Below are positions 7,701-23,282 of a stretch of 43,793 nt of DNA, piece after piece. Every line of letters starts with the position of its first letter. The stretch's first letter is position 1. The notes under the pieces were generated by a model that saw only the letters and a list, made by a program, of their open reading frames with translations, made no database searches and had not been told where the DNA came from. The stretch lies in IMG/VR virus record IMGVR_UViG_3300039918_000006, positions 1-43,793 of that record. The stretch is one strand, 5' to 3'. Source of the DNA: a virus. A program made the translations under genes and the position numbers.

Positions 7701-8732
7701 ATGACGATTGCTATTCCATACACAATCGGCGCATCTCCTTCTCGGCCCTCTGGAAATTCTGGAGTTAATGGTAGTTACGAGTATGGTGACGACATTGCCA
7801 GCGTGCTCGCACCCATTTCGATAACCGACGAAATGATGGTGTCGATTACTGCTGGAGGTATCGAGCTGACTGAAGACGCTGCACCTCTATGGAATCTATC
7901 TGCAACGTATGCTGAGGGTGATCGTGTCTACCTTCAAGAAACTCATCGTGTTTATGAAAGTATCAAGGATGGCAATGCAAACCGCTATCCAGGTGATTTG
8001 GCTAATCAGTTTAATGCGGCTGGTGTCGCCTCGTGGTGGATTGATGCTGGGCCTGCGAACCGATATGCAATGTTTGACGCGCTGATCTCAACGCAAACTG
8101 TTGCTCCTACTCCGTTGGATATCGTTCTTCGGCCTGGATCGTTCAATGGTATTGCAATGTTCGGTCTGGATGCTGATGAAATAGACATTGTAGTAACTGA
8201 CTACCCTGGGGGGGCCGTTGTATATAGCTATTCCGCATCGCTCGAAGGATCGCAGCCTTCTGACTACTACGAATACTTCTTCGACCGATTTAAGCCGCAG
8301 ACGCAATTTATCGCTACTGATTTAATACCCTACGGCGAGTCAGAGATTCGTATAACTCTAACCAAAGGAAGCGGCGATGTTCGCGTGGGCATGATTGCCT
8401 TAGGCGACTTGCGGCCGCTTGGCGAGCCTTTGCGAGGAGCAAGTGTTGAGCCGGTTGATTACAGCTACGTTTCTACTGACACTTTCGGAAATACAACGGT
8501 CCGCAAACGCAATAATGCTACTAGTCTGGCCATGTCGGCTAAGATGGATATTAACGACGCAAACTCGATCTTGGATACAATAAAAGAAGTTCTCGGCGTA
8601 CCCGTTGTAGTGGTTGGAAGCAAAGCACGTGGCTATGAAAATCTGACAGTTTTCGGCTTGCTTAGCGGCCGGATTCAACATGATGACTATGGTATGCCAA
8701 CGCTAAACATGACCGTTAAAGGATTGATCTGA
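7701..8732 (+). CDS. Putative distal tail / host-recognition protein
   Basis: 343 aa in the tail module. It has a carbohydrate-binding-like W..Y..GD.V.Y motif (WNLSATYAEGDRVYLQETHRVYE). Confidence 0.5.
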   Translation: MTIAIPYTIGASPSRPSGNSGVNGSYEYGDDIASVLAPISITDEMMVSITAGGIELTEDAAPLWNLSATYAEGDRVYLQETHRVYESIKDGNANRYPGDLANQFNAAGVASWWIDAGPANRYAMFDALISTQTVAPTPLDIVLRPGSFNGIAMFGLDADEIDIVVTDYPGGAVVYSYSASLEGSQPSDYYEYFFDRFKPQTQFIATDLIPYGESEIRITLTKGSGDVRVGMIALGDLRPLGEPLRGASVEPVDYSYVSTDTFGNTTVRKRNNATSLAMSAKMDINDANSILDTIKEVLGVPVVVVGSKARGYENLTVFGLLSGRIQHDDYGMPTLNMTVKGLI

Positions 8733-10000
8733 TGCCATTATTTACACCGCCTCCACTAGCACCCCAGCGTGGCGATCGTGCCACTTTTTCGCAAAGGGTG
8801 GATGCCTTTTTAACTTGGTTGGTTCAATTAATCCCACAGCTCAACGACTTTATCGCTGGCCTCAATTCACGAAATGCCGGAGGTGCAAATACGTTTACGT
8901 ATTCCTTCGATAGCGCCACCTCTGATGTTGATCCTGGAGAGGGCAAGTTGCGCCTAGGATCTTCTGCCCAAAGCGCATCTAATGTCCTGCGTATAGATTT
9001 GGCTGCGGATGGCGGGGTAGATATTTCATCAATCCTAGATTCAATTGGTGCAGTTAGCTCAAATGTCAAAGGTAGCGTGAGGCTGCAAAAATCCAGCGAT
9101 GTCACGGCATTTATGATCTTTGACGTGACAAGTGTTATTAATGCCGGCGGTTATCGTAATCTGATGGTCACCCCAAGGGCAAGCAGTTCAATGTATCCAT
9201 TTTCTAATGGCGATTTGCTGTCTGTATTCTTTGATAGAAATGGCGACAAGGGGGACGGTGGCGGAACTCCATCACAGCAAGATATCCGTAATGCCATCGG
9301 CATCCTGGGCCTGGAAAACGGTGGGACGGGATCGAATTCGGTCATTGGCGCAAGAACTACTCTAGGCGTACCCTCTACGACTGATGTCGTACTAAAAGAC
9401 GGCATGAACGTAAGCACGGGAACACGGCTTGTTTCGGGTGCAGCGCCAGGTATTGCAAACATGAACGGCAGTAATGGCAACGAAGACAAGGTGCCGCTAA
9501 TCATTGGCAATAACAATAATGCTGGAGCATCGGCACTGATTCAGTTTGTTCGCACGGGTCAGCATGCGGTTTTCTTTGGTTTGGATACCGACAACAAGAT
9601 AAAACTTGGTGGTTATTCCCTTGGCGCTGTTGCCTATGAAATCTGGCACCAAGGTAACTTCAACCCATCTGGATACGCTCAGCTTTCTGGCGCAGCATTT
9701 ACCGGGAATGTATCAGCTCCAAAATTTACTGCTACCTCTGACGAGTCGCTAAAGGAGAACTGGCGCGCAATCCCTGACGACTTCCTTGAGCGATTTGCAG
9801 CGATTGAACGCGCCGGATTGTTTGACTGGTCCAACAGTGGCGAAACGGATGGAGGTATTGGTGCGCAATCTGTACGTGAGATTGCCCCATGGTGCGTGGT
9901 GGACGTAGACGGAAAGCTTAGTGTGAATCACGCCGCACTGAATACCGTTGTCAGCCATGCCTTGGCCCGCCGTGTCTTGCGCAATGAGGCGATGCAATGA
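8732..10000 (+). CDS. Tail fibre protein with C-terminal S74-type intramolecular chaperone (auto-cleaving) domain
   Basis: 422 aa. The C-terminus TSDESLKENWRAIPDDFLERFAAIERAGLFDW...GIGAQSVREI matches the peptidase_S74 / endosialidase chaperone pattern (SD..LKEN). TGATG coupling to the upstream gene. Confidence 0.75.
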   Translation: MPLFTPPPLAPQRGDRATFSQRVDAFLTWLVQLIPQLNDFIAGLNSRNAGGANTFTYSFDSATSDVDPGEGKLRLGSSAQSASNVLRIDLAADGGVDISSILDSIGAVSSNVKGSVRLQKSSDVTAFMIFDVTSVINAGGYRNLMVTPRASSSMYPFSNGDLLSVFFDRNGDKGDGGGTPSQQDIRNAIGILGLENGGTGSNSVIGARTTLGVPSTTDVVLKDGMNVSTGTRLVSGAAPGIANMNGSNGNEDKVPLIIGNNNNAGASALIQFVRTGQHAVFFGLDTDNKIKLGGYSLGAVAYEIWHQGNFNPSGYAQLSGAAFTGNVSAPKFTATSDESLKENWRAIPDDFLERFAAIERAGLFDWSNSGETDGGIGAQSVREIAPWCVVDVDGKLSVNHAALNTVVSHALARRVLRNEAMQ

Positions 10001-15976: not shown

Positions 15977-16419
15977 TTCGGTTCTCTCGTTTCCACTGAT
16001 TCTTCACGTAATGCAGCCTCTGCTAATATCCCCTTGATGTGATCAAGGACAGGACCATGCATGTATTCGTCTGCGTGAAACCCGCACATCTCTTGAATCT
16101 CAAGCATGTCACGCACGATACCGCCTGCCTCGCACCGACGCGATTCACGGCCTGCTTCTAGTCCTGCTTCGAAAGCATCCTCCTGAATGTCGACAACTGT
16201 ATCTCGGCTGTAGCCCCACCGAACATCCCTCATGTCATCCATTTCTGGCAGCGATGGGAGTTCGCATTCTGCTGCCTGCTTATTAGCATCAGACTTGGAT
16301 TTCAGAATGTAGACTTTGCAACCCTCAGGAACATCTTCTGCCTTAAAGCAGACCATCGTGAATCCTTCGGTTGCCGGCATGTACGATGCAGATCCAACTT
16401 CTTTTATTTCTTTTCCCAT
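15973..16419 (-). CDS. Hypothetical protein (148 aa, acidic)
   Basis: GGGAGAG RBS. ATGA overlap with the downstream gene. It lies immediately downstream of structured element L. Confidence 0.65.
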   Translation of the reverse strand: MGKEIKEVGSASYMPATEGFTMVCFKAEDVPEGCKVYILKSKSDANKQAAECELPSLPEMDDMRDVRWGYSRDTVVDIQEDAFEAGLEAGRESRRCEAGGIVRDMLEIQEMCGFHADEYMHGPVLDHIKGILAEAALREESVETREPK

Positions 16420-16875
16420 TTCACTCTCCCTTGTTGTTTCGTTCAGGCATAAGACTAGCCAAGGGTTTGACCTCCCCCTCAGCCATACCTAACCAAGATT
16501 CCGGCTAGGTACTGCTGCTGCCACTAGGCTACCAATTCGATTTCCAGAGCGCCCGTTACGTGGGCTAATCGCCATGCGTCAAACTGTTGCTCTGTTCCTG
16601 GGATACCTTGGTAAAGTTCCACGCGCCGGCTAGTCAATAAGCGCAGACCATCAACTCCAAGCGGGTAGTCTTACTTCCCCTCTGCTATCGGGTGGAGTCC
16701 GGTCGATGTGGAAGCAGAAATGCAAAAAGCCCTTAAAGTTTCGGCTGTTCCTTGTGGAGGCAAGGGGAATCAGATCCTATCTAATCCCAAAAACAACCGA
16801 AGCTTTAAGGGCTTCAACCTGTCAACGCCTCCACATCGACAATTCAATTATTACGCAGCTTCAACCACCTTGCAA
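16420..16875 (-). ncRNA. Structured non-coding element L (candidate riboregulator / sRNA / ssDNA signal), paralog of element R
   Basis: No credible ORF. Promoter-like TTGCAA (16870-16875), 17-nt spacer, AATAAT (16847-16852) on the minus strand. Long hairpin plus U-tract, a pseudoknot-capable leader, and colinear similarity to 22507-22937. Confidence 0.5.
16716..16815 (-). terminator. Long hairpin with U-tract inside element L
   Basis: Minus-strand GAAGCCCTTAAAGCTTCGG (rc 16797-16815) pairs with CCGAAACTTTAAGGGCTTT (rc 16726-16744) with 1 mismatch and 1 G-U. The loop is 52 nt and is followed by TTTTTGCATTTCT. Confidence 0.5.
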
Positions 16876-19295: not shown

Positions 19296-19943
19296 TTATT
19301 TGATGCCTAGCCGTTTCTCCAAGCGGCGAATCTTCTTGCGCAAGATAGCTGCCAGGCGCTCCAGGTATTCGTCGCTGTACTCTCTTTCGCGCTTGTGGCA
19401 CTTCAGCCAGTCCACGCGCTCATCGCCAACCTTCTGACGCAATCTCGTCTCGTACGGTCCGATGTTCCCAGCCATGAAGAAGTTGCATTGATCGCACGCC
19501 TTGTGAATGTTCCACAGGTTGAACTGCAGGGCTGAATTGCTGCCAACGCTCTTGAAGTGCGATCCGTGCCACTTGCCTCCACTCCAATGCGCCGGCTTGT
19601 CGCAGCTAATGCAGCCATAAGCGTGGTCACGTAGCACCGCATAACGCTGCGCCAGCTTACGTACTGGCTCCGCCTTCTGAGCCACGGTCTTGTGCTCCTG
19701 CTTCTTCTTGCGATCTGCTGCACGCTCGGCTTTGGCCTTAGCCTGGCGCAGCTTCTCGACACGTTGCAGCGCGATGACTGCGCCGCAATCCTCGCTGCAC
19801 CAAGTCTCAAACGGGCGGCGGTCGTTCGGCACGTACAGCGCGCGGCAGTCACGGTTGGCGCATTTCTTCTTTCGCGGGCCTTTGGCTGGCTTCGATTGCG
19901 ATGGTTTAAAGCCTGTACGAACTAGCTCACTTCTCTTCATCAC
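19296..19943 (-). CDS. ninG: NinG/Rap-family recombination endonuclease
   Basis: 215 aa. An N-terminal Cys pair, a basic coiled region, and C.SC....W......GH..S......L.FNL.N....C..CN match the lambda NinG family pattern. Confidence 0.75.
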   Translation of the reverse strand: MMKRSELVRTGFKPSQSKPAKGPRKKKCANRDCRALYVPNDRRPFETWCSEDCGAVIALQRVEKLRQAKAKAERAADRKKKQEHKTVAQKAEPVRKLAQRYAVLRDHAYGCISCDKPAHWSGGKWHGSHFKSVGSNSALQFNLWNIHKACDQCNFFMAGNIGPYETRLRQKVGDERVDWLKCHKREREYSDEYLERLAAILRKKIRRLEKRLGIK

Positions 19944-20127
19944 GTTTGCTCATAAGAATATGGGTAGGAACAAACATAATGAAAATACCGAAGGCAAACA
20001 TAAGGCCGCAAAGCAAAGTTACCGCTTGCTCATTGCCTCGTTCTAGCATGTTCAAACCGGAGTACCATCCGACAAAGACCATAAATAGCAAGGCACAAAT
20101 CGATGCTAAAAATGCTTTTTTCATCAT
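19927..20127 (-). CDS. Small two-TM membrane protein
   Basis: 66 aa, hydrophobic, with an ATGA overlap with ninB. Confidence 0.55.
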   Translation of the reverse strand: MMKKAFLASICALLFMVFVGWYSGLNMLERGNEQAVTLLCGLMFAFGIFIMFVPTHILMSKRDEEK

Positions 20128-20588
20128 TGACCCTTTGCGGAAAATTGGACGCCAAGCGCTGCGCCGAACGCAAAAACTTGCTCCAGATAGTTTGAGTATC
20201 CCTTAACGGTAAGCTGCTTAGTCGATCCAACTAAGATGCGCTCGCCGCTTGGGTCGATGTCCCACTTCACATAGCCTTCCAAACACTGCTCAGGATCGAA
20301 CTCTTCTGGTAGAAAATGACGTTTGCAGTATTCGTGTAGAACCTCGACGCTGTACTGCCTGCCCTCAAACCATGCCTGCTCCGATATATCGCGCAGCGGG
20401 CCGGCAAACATCAAAGCTTGCTGATCTGGCTTACGTGCCTTCACTTCTTCACGCGCTACTACTTCAACAGGCCGCAGCGGATCAATAGGCAGGTTACGCA
20501 CAAGTGCCAGGAGGCTATCGCGCACCTTCTCATCACGCAGGATGAACTTGCGCGGCTGCATGGCAGGCCGGTTACTCTTCGCTCGCAT
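20124..20588 (-). CDS. ninB: NinB/Orf-family recombination mediator
   Basis: 154 aa. KPDQQALMFAGPLRDISEQAWFEGRQYS...STKQLTVKGYSNYLEQVFAFGAALGVQFS parallels lambda Orf (RSLDQNRKLWACLGDVS...STSRMRVGEFAELLELIQAFG). Confidence 0.7.
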   Translation of the reverse strand: MRAKSNRPAMQPRKFILRDEKVRDSLLALVRNLPIDPLRPVEVVAREEVKARKPDQQALMFAGPLRDISEQAWFEGRQYSVEVLHEYCKRHFLPEEFDPEQCLEGYVKWDIDPSGERILVGSTKQLTVKGYSNYLEQVFAFGAALGVQFSAKGQ

Positions 20589-20706
20589 AGATGCTCCGCT
20601 GTTCCACCTCGATACTCTGGTGATAGGCCATCACATCGATGCCGAAGCCAGCACCAAGCAGAAAGCCAAAGGTGATTAGGCTGAATATGATGAGAAAGTC
20701 GTTCAT
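20572..20706 (-). CDS. Small single-TM protein (44 aa)
   Basis: Translation: MNDFLIIFSLITFGFLLGAGFGIDVMAYHQSIEVEQRSIYASEE. ATGA overlap with the HTH gene and 17-nt overlap with ninB. Confidence 0.4.
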   Translation of the reverse strand: MNDFLIIFSLITFGFLLGAGFGIDVMAYHQSIEVEQRSIYASEE

Positions 20707-20912
20707 TTGCGCACCTTGGCATAGCTGCGAGCGGATTGAACGCGCTTCAGGCCCATTTCGCTAAGCATTGCTTCAGTCGGCTCATTGTGGCCGTTAAGGA
20801 TGCGCGAAATATATGTGCTGCTGAAGCCCCAGTGATCGGCGGCCTTCTTTTGCGTCTTGTACTTGTCCACAATGTGCACGCGAAGCTTGTGAAGTAGTTC
20901 CTGCTTTTCCAT
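20703..20912 (-). CDS. Cro/YdaS-like HTH regulator, first gene of the leftward arm
   Basis: 69 aa. KTQKKAADHWGFSSTYISRILNG is an HTH motif. AGGAGA RBS. It is adjacent to the divergent promoter region. Confidence 0.7.
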   Translation of the reverse strand: MEKQELLHKLRVHIVDKYKTQKKAADHWGFSSTYISRILNGHNEPTEAMLSEMGLKRVQSARSYAKVRK

Positions 20913-20939: not shown

Positions 20940-20967
20940 ATTATGCGCCAACGCTGAGTATAGTCAA
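20940..20967 (-). promoter_or_regulatory. Leftward early promoter candidate
   Basis: Minus strand: TTGACT (rc 20962-20967), 16-nt spacer, CATAAT (rc 20940-20945), about 25 nt upstream of the HTH gene ATG. Confidence 0.5.
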
Positions 20968-20976
20968 GAAAAATAA

Positions 20977-20993
20977 TTTACAAAGACTGTAAA
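20977..20993. promoter_or_regulatory. Operator-like inverted repeat TTTAC-N7-GTAAA
   Basis: TTTACAAAGACTGTAAA lies between the divergent promoters. Flanking (T/A/G)(A/C)CAAAG repeats sit at 20979-20985, 20992-20998 and 21003-21009. Confidence 0.3.
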
Positions 20994-21001
20994 CAAAGTT
21001 G

Positions 21002-21030
21002 TTGCAAAGGCTGGGTAGAAGTGGCATAGT
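21002..21030 (+). promoter_or_regulatory. Rightward early promoter candidate
   Basis: TTGCAA (21002-21007), 17-nt spacer, CATAGT (21025-21030), followed by the leader hairpin CGCCGA-GGCGT-TCGGCG (21041-21057). Confidence 0.45.
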
Positions 21031-21078
21031 GATGTTCATCGCCGAGGCGTTCGGCGCGGTGTAACAGGAGAAGAGAGT

Positions 21079-21243
21079 ATGGGCGATAAGCAAATTGGTA
21101 TTTCTATAATGATCATTTTGACCATGATTCCGTGGCTGTATATTCTTAAGACGGGTAAGAAGACCATCGAAGTAAATGTCTTAGTCTTAGTTGTGTTCGT
21201 GGCTCTTTACGCGCTCGGACTGTTCATGGCCTTTAAGCGTTGA
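21079..21243 (+). CDS. Small two-TM membrane protein (54 aa)
   Basis: AGGAGAAG RBS. Translation: MGDKQIGISIMIILTMIPWLYILKTGKKTIEVNVLVLVVFVALYALGLFMAFKR. Confidence 0.5.
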   Translation: MGDKQIGISIMIILTMIPWLYILKTGKKTIEVNVLVLVVFVALYALGLFMAFKR

Positions 21244-22192: not shown

Positions 22193-22510
22193 ATGAGTGT
22201 CATCAATGACTACATGAAAAACAATCGTAGCAAGAAACATGGTTGGCTGGTACGGCGTTTGGCTTGCAACGACGGCTTCACCATGTCTGTGCAAGCATCG
22301 GAATATAACTATTGCAAGCCGCGTCGCTCAGATGAGGATTGGTATTACCAAGTTGAGGTCGGCTATCCTAGCGAAAAACCTTCCGCTTTCCTTGAGTACG
22401 CAGAAGATCCAAACCAGCCGACGGAAACGGTATATGGGTACGTTCCCGTCGAACTGGTCGAGCAAGAGATTGCGCTTCATGGCGGTTTGAAAGGACCACA
22501 AGAAGATTGA
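22193..22510 (+). CDS. Hypothetical phage protein (105 aa)
   Basis: GGGGAG RBS. Conserved-looking core GFTMSVQASEYNYCKPR...VYGYVP...HGG. Confidence 0.65.
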   Translation: MSVINDYMKNNRSKKHGWLVRRLACNDGFTMSVQASEYNYCKPRRSDEDWYYQVEVGYPSEKPSAFLEYAEDPNQPTETVYGYVPVELVEQEIALHGGLKGPQED

Positions 22511-22937
22511 CGCAGATTAGTCTGCTTGATGTAGAATGTGCTTGTTGGCGTGGAAACCGACGAACAGTAGTGACCTAAGCCTCTTAGGTTTGAGCCCGCA
22601 AGATTACGAAATGGAATAGAGCCCATTTCCTAAGATTGTTTCCACCGGGTTCAAACCTAAGGGGCTTTTTGCTTTTCTAGACCACGCCAGCCGTACTCCA
22701 GACGATACCAAGCGCAAACCTCGGCGGCGTGGAAGAACAGAGTAGCGGTAGAGCTTAGGCTCAAGGTGCAATTCCTACAATCCGCTGGCTGGCGTAAATC
22801 CTGCGGCCAAGGGCGTAACGGCTAGACCGTTAGCTGGCAGGAATCCCGTAAGGGGGCGGCGTCCAAACCTTCCTGCCTCATAGTCTCCGGGGTTAGGGGG
22901 CGTTTGGGCGGAATTATCTTAACTAAAGGGGAAGAGG
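22507..22937 (+). ncRNA. Structured non-coding element R (candidate riboregulator / sRNA / ssDNA signal), paralog of element L
   Basis: No credible ORF. TTGACG (22507-22512), 19-nt spacer, TAGAAT (22532-22537). A 19-bp hairpin plus U-tract, a pseudoknot-capable leader, and a G+C-rich hairpin-dense 3' part reaching the next RBS. Confidence 0.5.
22579..22676 (+). terminator. Long hairpin with U-tract inside element R
   Basis: 22579-22597 pairs with 22647-22665 (17 Watson-Crick + 2 G-U). The loop is 49 nt and is followed by TTTTTGCTTTT. Confidence 0.5.
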
Positions 22938-23282
22938 ATGAAAAAAGGCGTGCTAATGGGTTACCGCCTTGAGTGGAAACCCGGAGATTACATCTACGAA
23001 TCTCCAGAGCACTACGCTAAAGACATATGCAAAGCAAGTGCTAGAACTTGGGGGTTATACACCGAGCCTCAAGAGGGATGCGATCAGGCCATAGAGGTCT
23101 ACTACGGAAGACATTGGGTTCAGCCTAAGAATGTTCACGGAAAGTGCCTAGATGGATTCACAGCACTGTATCTCGGTCCGATCTTGCATCAGCCGCCAAT
23201 CGATGAAGATATCATCTTCGCTTTCCCGAGCATTGTGGAAGATTTACTTAGGACTTCCAAGCCTGAACTATTTAAGGAGTAG
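22938..23282 (+). CDS. Hypothetical protein (114 aa)
   Basis: AAGGGGAAGAGG RBS, immediately downstream of element R. Confidence 0.65.
   Translation: MKKGVLMGYRLEWKPGDYIYESPEHYAKDICKASARTWGLYTEPQEGCDQAIEVYYGRHWVQPKNVHGKCLDGFTALYLGPILHQPPIDEDIIFAFPSIVEDLLRTSKPELFKE

Follow-up and report, generated by a model that had tools for sequence, protein, structure and literature searches.

The window, that is, the whole 43,793-nt stretch of viral DNA analyzed here (IMG/VR record IMGVR_UViG_3300039918_000006), carries on its + strand a gene-free segment between a gene for a 105-aa protein and an ORF of 114 aa, with Erf recombination genes downstream. This segment, which we call element R, proves to be a genuine RNA element that folds strongly and has promoter-like and terminator-like parts. 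It comprises a 5′ module (22507-22689) made up of promoter-like hexamers, a leader, a long hairpin, and a U-tract, and a 3′ module (22691 to ~22910), a covarying structured domain whose first letters are CCGYACYCCRRRCGAYAYYAAGC. A linker, the ribosome-binding site (AAAGGGGAAGAGG), and the start codon of the 114-aa ORF occupy 22911..22940 on the same strand; the element continues straight into this ribosome-binding site, as it does in the window clade, and TTAACTAAAGGGGAAGA-GATG is present also in relative L003, where a different gene comes next. We rechecked on the sequence the coordinates and pairings that an earlier note had given for the element and found them base-for-base exact, and its overall interpretation is supported in part by the relatives.

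A hidden gene or pseudogene is ruled out by stop codons in every frame (4-11 per frame, all six frames) and by indels that are not multiples of three (1 and 2 nt in the alignment with relative L002). An ORF of L002 is missing from the window. The statement that no credible ORF exists here holds as made for the + strand, which contains none of 30 aa or more; the - strand does have ORFs of 49-55 aa that overlap the element, with no sign of conservation. The flanking proteins were both rejected as partners of the element: the ~87 loci with homologues of the 105-aa protein encoded upstream all lack the element and hardly ever show a gap behind that gene, and the sole homologue of the downstream 114-aa protein has no upstream gap, the downstream genes varying among relatives. 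Minimum free energy folding, a check proposed at the outset, gave -68.1 kcal/mol for the 5′ module, compared with a mean of -36.4 for shuffled sequences (z = -8.0). In shuffle comparisons the long hairpin alone reached z = -7.6, and the full 400 nt gave z values of -3.7 (+ strand) and -1.8 (- strand).

Promoter-Like Element, Long Hairpin, and U-Tract

The promoter-like element of copy R (22507..22537, + strand) has a -35 hexamer TTGACG, a 19-nt spacer, and a -10 hexamer TAGAAT, as read before, and such hexamers are enriched across relatives: those scoring at least 9 occur in 49% of modules (55 relatives) vs. 2.6% of control windows, with the -10 end mostly 33-48 nt upstream of the hairpin. The stretch TTGACG..TAGAATGTGC is identical at 34/35 positions in L093, and L002 has TTGACA-17-TATTCT in the same place. 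Our consensus promoter scan covered spacers of 16-18 nt, a range outside which the spacer of copy R (19 nt) falls. Judged by these hexamers, transcription would start at the promoter-like element. A TTGACA promoter-like element is also found 3′ of the 3′ domain in clade A and in some B-type members, which suggests that the RNA is able to form a unit of its own instead of the leader of an mRNA.

The long hairpin (22579..22665, + strand) consists of a 19-bp stem (22579-97 with 22647-65; 17 Watson-Crick and 2 G-U pairs) closing a 49-nt loop, within which a 7-bp hairpin forms (22608-14 with 22623-29), and it carries the tail TTTTTGCTTTT. The U-tract UUUUUGCUUUU (22666..22676) abuts the G+C-rich base of the stem (GGGGC) and is kept in all subfamilies in the form UUUUU(N2-3)UUUCU or UUUUUUGCGUUU; of 77 upstream stretches that we inspected, 64 contain both hairpin and U-tract. 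In the equivalent stems of clade A, pairing is kept in 96.6% of alignment cells and both partners have changed in 16 of 40 pairs, compared with 33-57% paired in slid-alignment controls for the 5′ module. Several positions in clade A are G-U in all or most sequences, supporting an RNA of the element's own strand. The CCTAAG/CTTAGG repeats are not conserved in relatives and do not represent a repeat code but simply the two arms of the stem; CTTAGG, noted earlier as single, has two sites in the segment, at 22583 and at 22754.

A G+C-rich stem directly before a U-tract is the arrangement of an intrinsic terminator. In place of the short loop (3-8 nt) and compact hairpin of such terminators, the element has a structured loop of 49 nt, and the site is absent from the output of our consensus terminator scan. 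We regard the hairpin as a predicted terminator that is atypical in its loop.

Two Overlapping Helices Share the Leader

The leader strand of the pseudoknot, GUGGAAAC (22550..22557), finds its partner GUUUCCAC (22638-45) in the loop of the long hairpin, and the eight Watson-Crick pairs proposed between GTGGAAAC and GTTTCCAC are present as described. Every subfamily keeps this leader/loop pairing, each with different sequences. In clade A, 5/8 pairs of the helix show compensatory changes. Across 54 modules, the median complementarity is 8 nt for cognate leader/loop pairs vs. 5 nt for noncognate ones, and it reaches at least 7 nt in 83% of cognate and 9.8% of noncognate pairs. Between near-identical relatives, in which the remainder of the element is nearly unchanged, the sequence of the pseudoknot is hypervariable. 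In per-sequence shuffle tests with G-U pairs allowed, the 8-bp helix is not significant by itself (p about 0.3-0.6), and its support comes from covariation and from the cognate vs. noncognate comparison.

The same leader can pair past the U-tract to form helix P1, with UGGCGUGG (22546..22553) as its 5′ strand and CCACGCCA (22682..22689) as its 3′ strand. Its eight Watson-Crick pairs, between TGGCGTGG and the latter, are conserved through compensatory variants in relatives (GTCGATGG/CCATCGAC, GTCGATGAG/CTCATCGAC, GTCGGTGG/CCACCGAC, GTGCTTGGCA/TGCCAAGCAC, and ATCTATGTGACG/CGTCACATAGAT), and P1 is retained with at least nine different sequences across the family. P1 and the pseudoknot compete, as had been predicted: they share 4 nt in copy R and up to 8 nt in relatives, the overlap being 4-8 nt in both window copies (R and the second copy, L) and in L095, L100, L122, and L134. 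The terminator-like stem contributes no nucleotides to either helix. A third helix that the earlier note had drawn, CCACGCC (22682-88) with GGCGGCGTGG (22723-32), is not conserved. Its first strand varies freely and GGCGYGG is fixed, the latter because another covarying helix uses it as its 3′ strand.

We also looked for a second target of the loop in the next 800 nt, where mean complementarity is 5.76 nt for cognate and 5.90 nt for noncognate pairs; this equality rules out a seqC-like downstream target as a family feature. An extra GTGGAAACC at 22973 occurs in the window, with no counterpart in relatives.

A Conserved 3′ Domain

The 3′ domain opens with a core motif (22691..22738, + strand; covariance model R1, alignment A3) built from helix Pa (22697-99 and 22702-04 with 22728-33) and hairpin Pb (22713-15 with 22724-26). 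The core of element R scores 58.6 bits against R1 (E = 8e-14), and in A3, 98.8% of cells are paired and 5/10 pairs covary, with 35-54% of cells paired in slid controls. Comparison with L002, L129, and L143 defines the remainder of the R-type domain (22739..22910, + strand): the helices AGCGG/CCGCU (22744-48 with 22782-86), GAGC/GCUC (22751-54 with 22759-62), UCCUGC/GCAGGA (22799-804 with 22837-42), and UAACGG/CCGUUA (22816-21 with 22827-32), a T-loop-like AGG-UGCAAUU-CCU (22764-76), and the 3′ motif GUUUGG (22902-07). Three of these helices show compensatory changes in the same comparison, to CCCGG/CCGGG, CACUGU/ACAGUG, and UAACGA/UCGUUA, respectively, for AGCGG/CCGCU, UCCUGC/GCAGGA, and UAACGG/CCGUUA. 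The hairpins noted earlier in these 240 nt (22817-31 and 22845-54) are exact, and the region is a conserved domain instead of the generic hairpin-dense leader for which it had been taken.

Relatives with the other, B-type 3′ domain, copy L included, have a closing helix that is 96% paired, 7/9 of its pairs occurring as two or more Watson-Crick types. In L096, L105, L123, L156, and L178 the 3′ domain stands alone, directly after an ORF and without the 5′ module, so the two modules need not act together. The domain is not followed by a terminator or a defined 3′ end. Canonical intrinsic terminators, the type to which our count extends, show no clear excess after it, at 6-7 per 250-nt bin vs. 1-8 elsewhere.

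A Second Copy in the Window

Searching with a B-type profile (nhmmer, E = 1e-49), we found a second, diverged copy of the whole element, copy L, at 16453..16875 on the - strand. Its promoter-like element (TTGCAA at 16875-70, a 17-nt spacer, and AATAAT at 16852-47) is among the five sites that the consensus scan returned for the window. P1 extends to 13 bp (16840-28 with 16714-02), the pseudoknot pairs GUGGAGGC (16834-27) with GCCUCCAC (16761-54), and the hairpin (16813-793 with 16748-728) is followed by a U-tract (16728-15); the fold has -75.4 kcal/mol and z = -9.4. Beyond these lie a reduced core (16702-16671), the second-best R1 match in the window, and a B-type 3′ domain that ends at 16453, ahead of a gene starting at 16419. 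Copy L stands before replication genes, with an O-like replication initiator following, and the window thus has one copy in each of its divergent early operons (R on the + strand, L on the - strand), with different leader/loop codes. Two copies per phage are not a general rule: none of the 23 loci with at least 7 kb upstream or the 22 with at least 7 kb downstream has a second one, and this window alone has two.

A Family of Early-Operon RNAs in Uncultivated Phages

Element R belongs to an RNA family of at least 130 phage or metagenome loci, on contigs of uncultivated phages. The phage of the window is itself known only from assemblies, and Logan ERR6683664 contains a contig identical to it. 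In the loci examined, the element lies upstream of replication or recombination genes on the same strand, and in 31 of 97 unique loci it follows the cro-like gene that is first in the rightward early operon. The genes downstream vary greatly, falling into 60 clusters at 94 loci, and the element forms a junction at which those of close relatives differ. Several relatives have HNH endonuclease genes inserted beside the element. Among the tested neighbors, PHROG scans returned no N- or Q-like antiterminator.

By the measure of Rfam and deposited phages, the family is previously unannotated. Copy R, copy L, and seven representative relatives gave no Rfam family match at the gathering threshold or at E up to 10, the permissive matches on the hairpin being chance ones of microRNA type. 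ARAGORN reported no tRNA or tmRNA, and Rfam and ARAGORN together gave no match to GOLLD, ROOL, OLE, HEARO, raiA, RNase P, tmRNA, or group I/II introns. A blastn search with the segment and the elements of three relatives found nothing in deposited phages, plasmids, and E. coli genomes, nor did the element match any of 50,697 deposited phage genomes. Our literature searches found no published description of an RNA of this type.

Discussion

With the anatomy of the element, the conservation of its helices, promoter, and U-tract, and its genomic position established, position and architecture suggest control of early-gene transcription, and an attenuator or antiterminator function, as first proposed, is plausible on sequence grounds. 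In a riboswitch or attenuator the sensor precedes the terminator. Here a leader of ~35 nt precedes the hairpin and the large domain follows the U-tract, and since the terminator-like hairpin comes before the conserved domain, nothing that the domain might sense could decide termination at that point.

The explanation that we favor, tentatively, is that the element may be a cis-acting leader that sets termination vs. read-through into the delayed-early genes by means of a phage-specific leader/loop code. Element R would be one of two copies of a two-module cis-acting RNA, each heading a delayed-early operon. Transcription from a sigma-70-type promoter would yield an RNA in which the leader and the apical loop of the long hairpin pair as a pseudoknot, and hairpin and U-tract would serve as an intrinsic terminator, necessarily a leaky one given that P1 and the 3′ domain are encoded past it. 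Upon read-through, bases past the U-tract would pair with the leader as P1, displacing part of the pseudoknot and closing the 5′ module onto the ~220-nt conserved structured domain, and this exchange could alter the outcome of termination. The 3′ domain would be co-transcribed with the genes downstream, for Erf recombination in copy R and for replication in copy L. The leader/loop code would provide specificity, determining whether termination or read-through takes place and possibly feeding back on that choice. This role for the code is suggested by the differences in leader and loop between near-identical phages and between the two window copies.

Parts of this scheme have counterparts elsewhere. 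The lambda PR′-qut-6S RNA-tR′ region resembles the element in having a promoter and, ~130 nt on, a terminator, with a short RNA as the default and read-through expressing the operon. The element differs in having no Q-like protein among its tested neighbors and in the genes downstream, which are early (recombination and replication) rather than late; its transcribed region is also a covarying structure, which the lambda 6S region is not known to be. In pT181 repC and IncB/IncI-alpha repZ, leader/loop pairing likewise competes with an alternative helix adjoining a terminator or a ribosome-binding site, and specificity (incompatibility) ahead of the replication genes is determined by the loop sequences. 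Those systems employ a countertranscript from the opposite strand, whereas in the element both partners are on the same strand and neither an antisense promoter nor a bidirectional terminator is evident.

Other explanations attribute the code, or the 3′ domain, to different functions. A stand-alone riboregulator of the P4 CI, P1 c4, or IsrK type, exerting phage-specific, immunity-like control of termination or translation, is in our view unlikely; a short terminated RNA, or a loop freed by P1, would pair in trans with nascent leaders of the same phage. The C4 family (P4 CI, P1-P7 c4, and Gifsy-1 IsrK) shares with the element a phage-leader hairpin with loop complementarity to a nearby upstream site of the same transcript, complementary sequences that vary between related phages, and a location ahead of replication or early genes. 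Published precedents exist in P4 CI RNA, which pairs with seqA upstream and seqC downstream and brings about termination ahead of the replication genes, and in IsrK, which has its own promoter and a leaky terminator, as predicted for the element, and acts as a short and a read-through form (PMC4825925). The promoter-like element and predicted leaky terminator of our RNA would suit such a regulator, as would the differing codes of copies R and L, and a hypervariable complementary leader/loop in a near-identical element is the pattern expected of specificity determinants. Arguing against it, the C4 model was among the Rfam models that gave no match at E up to 10, no conserved second target corresponding to seqC or a2/b2 lies downstream, and the element's own leader would mask the loop in a short RNA. 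The reading also leaves without a role the large conserved domain after the ~90-nt hairpin and its U-tract, a domain that those systems lack. We know of no described C4-family RNA with a P1-type pairing across the terminator.

That domain is given a role if it is a cis-acting processive antitermination RNA like HK022 put or lambda nut, modifying RNA polymerase to pass terminators of the delayed-early operon, with the 5′ module as an accessory entry point. As with lambda nutL/nutR and HK022 putL/putR, the element would act in cis on the transcript and lies between a cro-like first gene and delayed-early genes such as those for replication, with one copy per divergent early operon in the window; occurrence of the domain alone inside operons, directly after an ORF, and the lack of an N- or Q-like antiterminator among the scanned neighbors also agree with this proposal. 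We nevertheless consider it quite improbable, since canonical terminators are not clearly enriched downstream, two copies per phage are confined to this window and not general in the family, and promoter-like and terminator-like parts precede the conserved RNA, unlike in nut and put (the latter compared by description). At 220-300 nt, the domain is also several times the size of either, nut (boxA/boxB) and put (two stem-loops, about 65-70 nt) being far smaller. A free-standing large RNA unrelated to transcription control, such as a ribozyme, a scaffold or sponge for proteins, or an "ornate" RNA that self-assembles through leader/loop pairing between molecules, would account for a length of ~400-480 nt with several pseudoknots and long-range helices, for the promoter-like element, followed in some subfamilies by another after the RNA, and for the diversity of the downstream genes. 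GOLLD, ROOL, OLE, and HEARO are likewise long multi-pseudoknot RNAs, mainly from phage or metagenomic sequence. The element is smaller, matches no Rfam large-RNA family, and keeps a constant position and orientation at the head of an early operon; no terminator or defined 3′ end closes the 3′ domain, and in the window clade the RNA leads directly into a ribosome-binding site, all of which makes a free-standing RNA rather doubtful. Far less probable still is a DNA-level element (a replication origin, a recombination or module-junction site, or a homing endonuclease target) with incidental RNA structure. Although HNH endonuclease genes beside the element, its junction position, and the replication initiator gene adjoining copy L would fit, base pairing is preserved by dozens of compensatory changes, numerous conserved G-U pairs would become A-C mismatches on the opposite strand or in a cruciform, and folding is much stronger on the + strand (z = -3.7 vs. 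-1.8).

Returning to the cis-acting leader, a broader and more speculative possibility, to which we give a modest chance, is that these elements form a new class of RNA-only regulators of early genes in uncultivated lambdoid-like phages, in which a promoter-proximal terminator gated by a self-recognizing, phage-specific code, P1 exchange on read-through, and an ornate domain would replace protein antiterminators or immunity factors. The hypervariable, always complementary leader/loop pairs constitute a natural set of orthogonal RNA-RNA codes, and they make the privacy of phage circuits from co-infecting relatives testable with compensatory mutants. Even if the mechanism is wrong, more than 100 diverse covarying sequences provide a ~400-nt multi-pseudoknot target for structure determination, and the element is useful as a marker of early-operon boundaries in phage contigs. 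If the mechanism is right, many uncultivated temperate-type phages would gate their replication and recombination programs by an RNA that annotation has missed.

A structured gene-free segment and the family to which it belongs

The gene-free segment at 22507-22937 (+ strand) lies between a 105-aa ORF (22193-22510) and a 114-aa ORF (22938-23282), both on the + strand. Its description as structured and gene-free is confirmed: 4-11 stop codons per frame in all six frames leave no credible ORF, and the minus-strand ORFs of 49-55 aa that overlap it are unconserved. On recheck, the promoter-like hexamers (TTGACG, 19-nt spacer, TAGAAT), the 19-bp hairpin (17 Watson-Crick and 2 G-U pairs) with its 49-nt loop and UUUUUGCUUUU tail, the 7-bp inner hairpin of that loop, the 8-bp complementarity between leader (22550-57) and loop (22638-45; GUGGAAAC with GUUUCCAC), and that between leader UGGCGUGG (22546-53) and CCACGCCA just 3' of the U-tract (22682-89; 8 bp) were all exact. 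The count given for CTTAGG needs amending, as it is not single (a second is present at 22754). Folding of the 149 nt at the 5' end gives -68.1 kcal/mol vs. -36.4 for dinucleotide shuffles (z = -8.0); over the full 400 nt, z is -3.7 for the + strand vs. -1.8 for the - strand. The leader pseudoknot strand (22550-58) recurs identically as GTGGAAACC at 22973-22981, 35 nt inside the downstream ORF, probably by chance, since relatives have no comparable downstream copy.

Rfam 15 yielded nothing for the segment at gathering score and, at E up to 10, only chance microRNA-precursor matches to the long hairpin; ARAGORN found no tRNA or tmRNA, and blastn found no match in deposited phages, plasmids, or E. 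coli genomes. A Logan contig is identical to the window. The genes for two homologues of the upstream 105-aa protein (88% and 68% identity) are each separated from the next gene by a 417-440-nt gap alignable to the segment, and the genes beyond differ (RecT in one, DUF551 in the other). Scanning IMG/VR with a 23-nt motif derived from this alignment (CCGYACYCCRRRCGAYAYYAAGC, window 22691-22713) retrieved 25 contigs, with a chance expectation below 1; a relaxed form retrieved 76, including 51 new loci that nhmmer confirmed without exception, and a motif taken elsewhere in the 3' domain retrieved 37, of which 35 were new. A variant of the 23-nt motif gave ~13 true members among 35 matches in a metagenome scan. 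In total, the element is present at 130 or more loci. Representative elements had no match in deposited phage genomes (4/4), and representative loci none in Rfam (7/7). The analysis establishes the segment as a real RNA structure of the transcribed strand, belonging to a widespread family absent from Rfam 15; the element is outside every family testable here.

The upstream 105-aa protein itself belongs to a large family (698 homologues) that lacks a Pfam domain, is common in phage contigs, and has invariant residues including C25, D27, F29, R44, E55, a VYGYVP motif (80-85), and H96. The element does not generally accompany this family: at ~87 further homologue loci a gap almost never follows the gene, and none has the element.

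Conserved pairing in the 5' and 3' modules

Every subfamily has the leader, the long hairpin with its structured loop, and the U-tract (UUUUU-N2-3-UUUCU or UUUUUUGCGUUU). Across 14 distinct sequences of the subfamily we call clade A, pairing in the stems and in one leader/internal-loop pseudoknot reaches 96.6% (33-57% when the partner is slid by 1-3 columns), with double-sided changes in 16 of 40 pairs. At several clade A positions, all or most sequences have G-U, and the folded molecule is therefore RNA of this strand.

The pseudoknot between leader and apical loop holds well beyond the window, being kept in all subfamilies with unrelated sequences: GGGUGGGC/GCCCACCC, GGUAGGGC/GCCCUACC, GGUGCGAC/GUCGCACC, GUGACGGC/GCCGUCAC, UGCAGCAACA/UGUUGCUGCA, and GUGUCGGGCA/UGCCCGACAC. 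Among 54 unique modules, cognate leaders and loops share a median of 8 contiguous Watson-Crick pairs vs. 5 for non-cognate combinations, and 83% vs. 9.8% reach at least 7; nearly identical 3' domains may accompany entirely different pseudoknot sequences. Pairing of the leader with bases past the U-tract (helix P1) is likewise kept across at least nine different sequences among window-type members. The proposal that one leader has two alternative partners proves recurrent, because the 5' strand of P1 overlaps the pseudoknot strand in both copies of the element in the window (4 nt in copy R, the segment at 22507-22937, and 7 nt in copy L, described below) and in L095, L100, L122, and L134 (5-8 nt). 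The further helix proposed between 22682-88 and 22723-32 is unconserved; its GGCGYGG is fixed and belongs, as 3' strand, to another helix.

Relatives also have a promoter-like hexamer pair, ending mostly 33-48 nt 5' of the hairpin; 49% of 55 modules score at least 9, vs. 2.6% of control windows. The stretch TTGACG..TAGAAT, spacer included, is identical at 34 of 35 positions between the window (22507-22541) and locus L093 (1328-1362), elements otherwise diverged, which suggests a protein-binding site that overlaps the promoter.

The 3' module opens with a core motif (22691-22738, + strand) in which Pa is a bulged helix and Pb a hairpin; pairing holds in 98.8% of cells over 24 distinct sequences (35-54% in slid controls), and 5 of 10 pairs covary. 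With a covariance model of this core, the window scores 58.6 bits and 40 relatives score 53-69 bits. The 3' domain of copy R, which we call R-type, is common to L002, L129, and L143, with compensatory changes (AGCGG/CCGCU vs. CCCGG/CCGGG; UCCUGC/GCAGGA vs. CACUGU/ACAGUG; UAACGG/CCGUUA vs. UAACGA/UCGUUA). It includes a hairpin resembling a tRNA T-arm or T-loop, xGG-UGCAAWU-CCx (window 22764-22776; also L129 and L143), whose stem covaries (AGG/CCU, GGG/CCC, CGG/CCG). The commoner B-type domain (34 distinct sequences) has a long-range closing helix that is 96% paired, with at least two Watson-Crick types in 7 of 9 pairs, and that is a pseudoknot too, since its 5' strand sits inside the loop of another hairpin. 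A 3'-terminal YUUGG could also pair with core CC-RRR as an alternative to Pa. The 3' module occurs alone, directly after an ORF, in L096, L105, L123, L156, and L178. Two relatives, L166 (~8340-8590) and L180, have an insertion of ~210 nt exactly between U-tract and core motif (in oriented sequence, at TTAG^ACCGTAC); nothing in Rfam matches it.

A second copy and the genomic setting

A profile of the 3' domain revealed a diverged second copy in the window, copy L (minus strand, ~16875-16453), with the full architecture: a promoter-like element (TTGCAA, 17-nt spacer, AATAAT; 8 kb contain only five consensus promoter sites, this one included), a 13-bp P1, a pseudoknot (GUGGAGGC with GCCUCCAC), and a 21-bp hairpin followed by UUUUUGCAUUUCUG. 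It folds with z = -9.4, its core is reduced, and its 3' domain is B-type. The divergent promoters of the window are at ~20940-21146, with consensus sites at 20967-20940 (-) and 21118-21146 (+). In the leftward early operon, copy L precedes a 148-aa ORF and an O-like replication initiator; in the rightward operon, copy R precedes the 114-aa ORF and Erf. No other locus with at least 7 kb of flank has a second copy. The first genes of the leftward operon (at 19296-20912, minus strand) encode a 69-aa HTH protein and then homologues of NinB and NinG; among the window proteins scanned, none was an integrase or resembled N or Q.

Of 97 unique loci in relatives, 31 have a gene for a cro-like HTH protein upstream of the element, and in others the upstream gene is of nin-region type; downstream genes fall into 60 clusters across 94 loci, including replication initiators, Gp157-like proteins, RecT, and Erf. 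With a cro-like gene upstream and replication or recombination genes downstream, the usual place of the element is that of lambda nutR/tR1, 3' of cro and 5' of the delayed-early genes. Clade A and some B-type members have a further TTGACA-type promoter 3' of the 3' domain.

Some loci have an HNH endonuclease gene inserted beside the cro-like gene or fused to it; such genes (phrog_1872/3593) lie directly upstream of the element in L094, L107, L110, L111, L116, and others, and in the L185 group the gene preceding the element is of a second HNH type (phrog_131). They may be free-standing homing endonucleases exploiting this conserved region. In L100, a tRNA and an int-alpA RNA (Rfam RF02996) at 9153-9312, ~3 kb upstream of the element, suggest an integration site or prophage end.

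A candidate switch between termination and read-through

The earlier note saw in the competing helices a pattern typical of attenuators or antiterminators. That reading is partly supported: the pseudoknot and P1, with one leader serving two partners, are conserved; the helix between 22682-88 and 22723-32 is not. Against a classical attenuator or riboswitch, the large conserved domain is located 3' of the terminator-like hairpin, and the competing helices use no terminator-stem nucleotides. Membership in the P4 CI/c4/IsrK family (PMC4825925) is disfavored, as that family's model does not match the element and the element's loci have no conserved downstream target. An antitermination role for the 3' domain, by analogy with put sites, would fit its position, although canonical terminators are not in excess downstream of it. 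G-U pairs and the strand asymmetry of folding make a purely DNA-level role unlikely.

The nearest functional analogues are phage leader riboregulators and antitermination sites. We infer that the element works as a leader: transcription would either terminate at the U-tract or continue into the delayed-early genes, and the element would decide which. When transcription continues, the leader would exchange one partner, the hairpin loop, for another, the post-terminator segment, and the hypervariable leader/loop code would give phage specificity and also keep copies L and R distinct.
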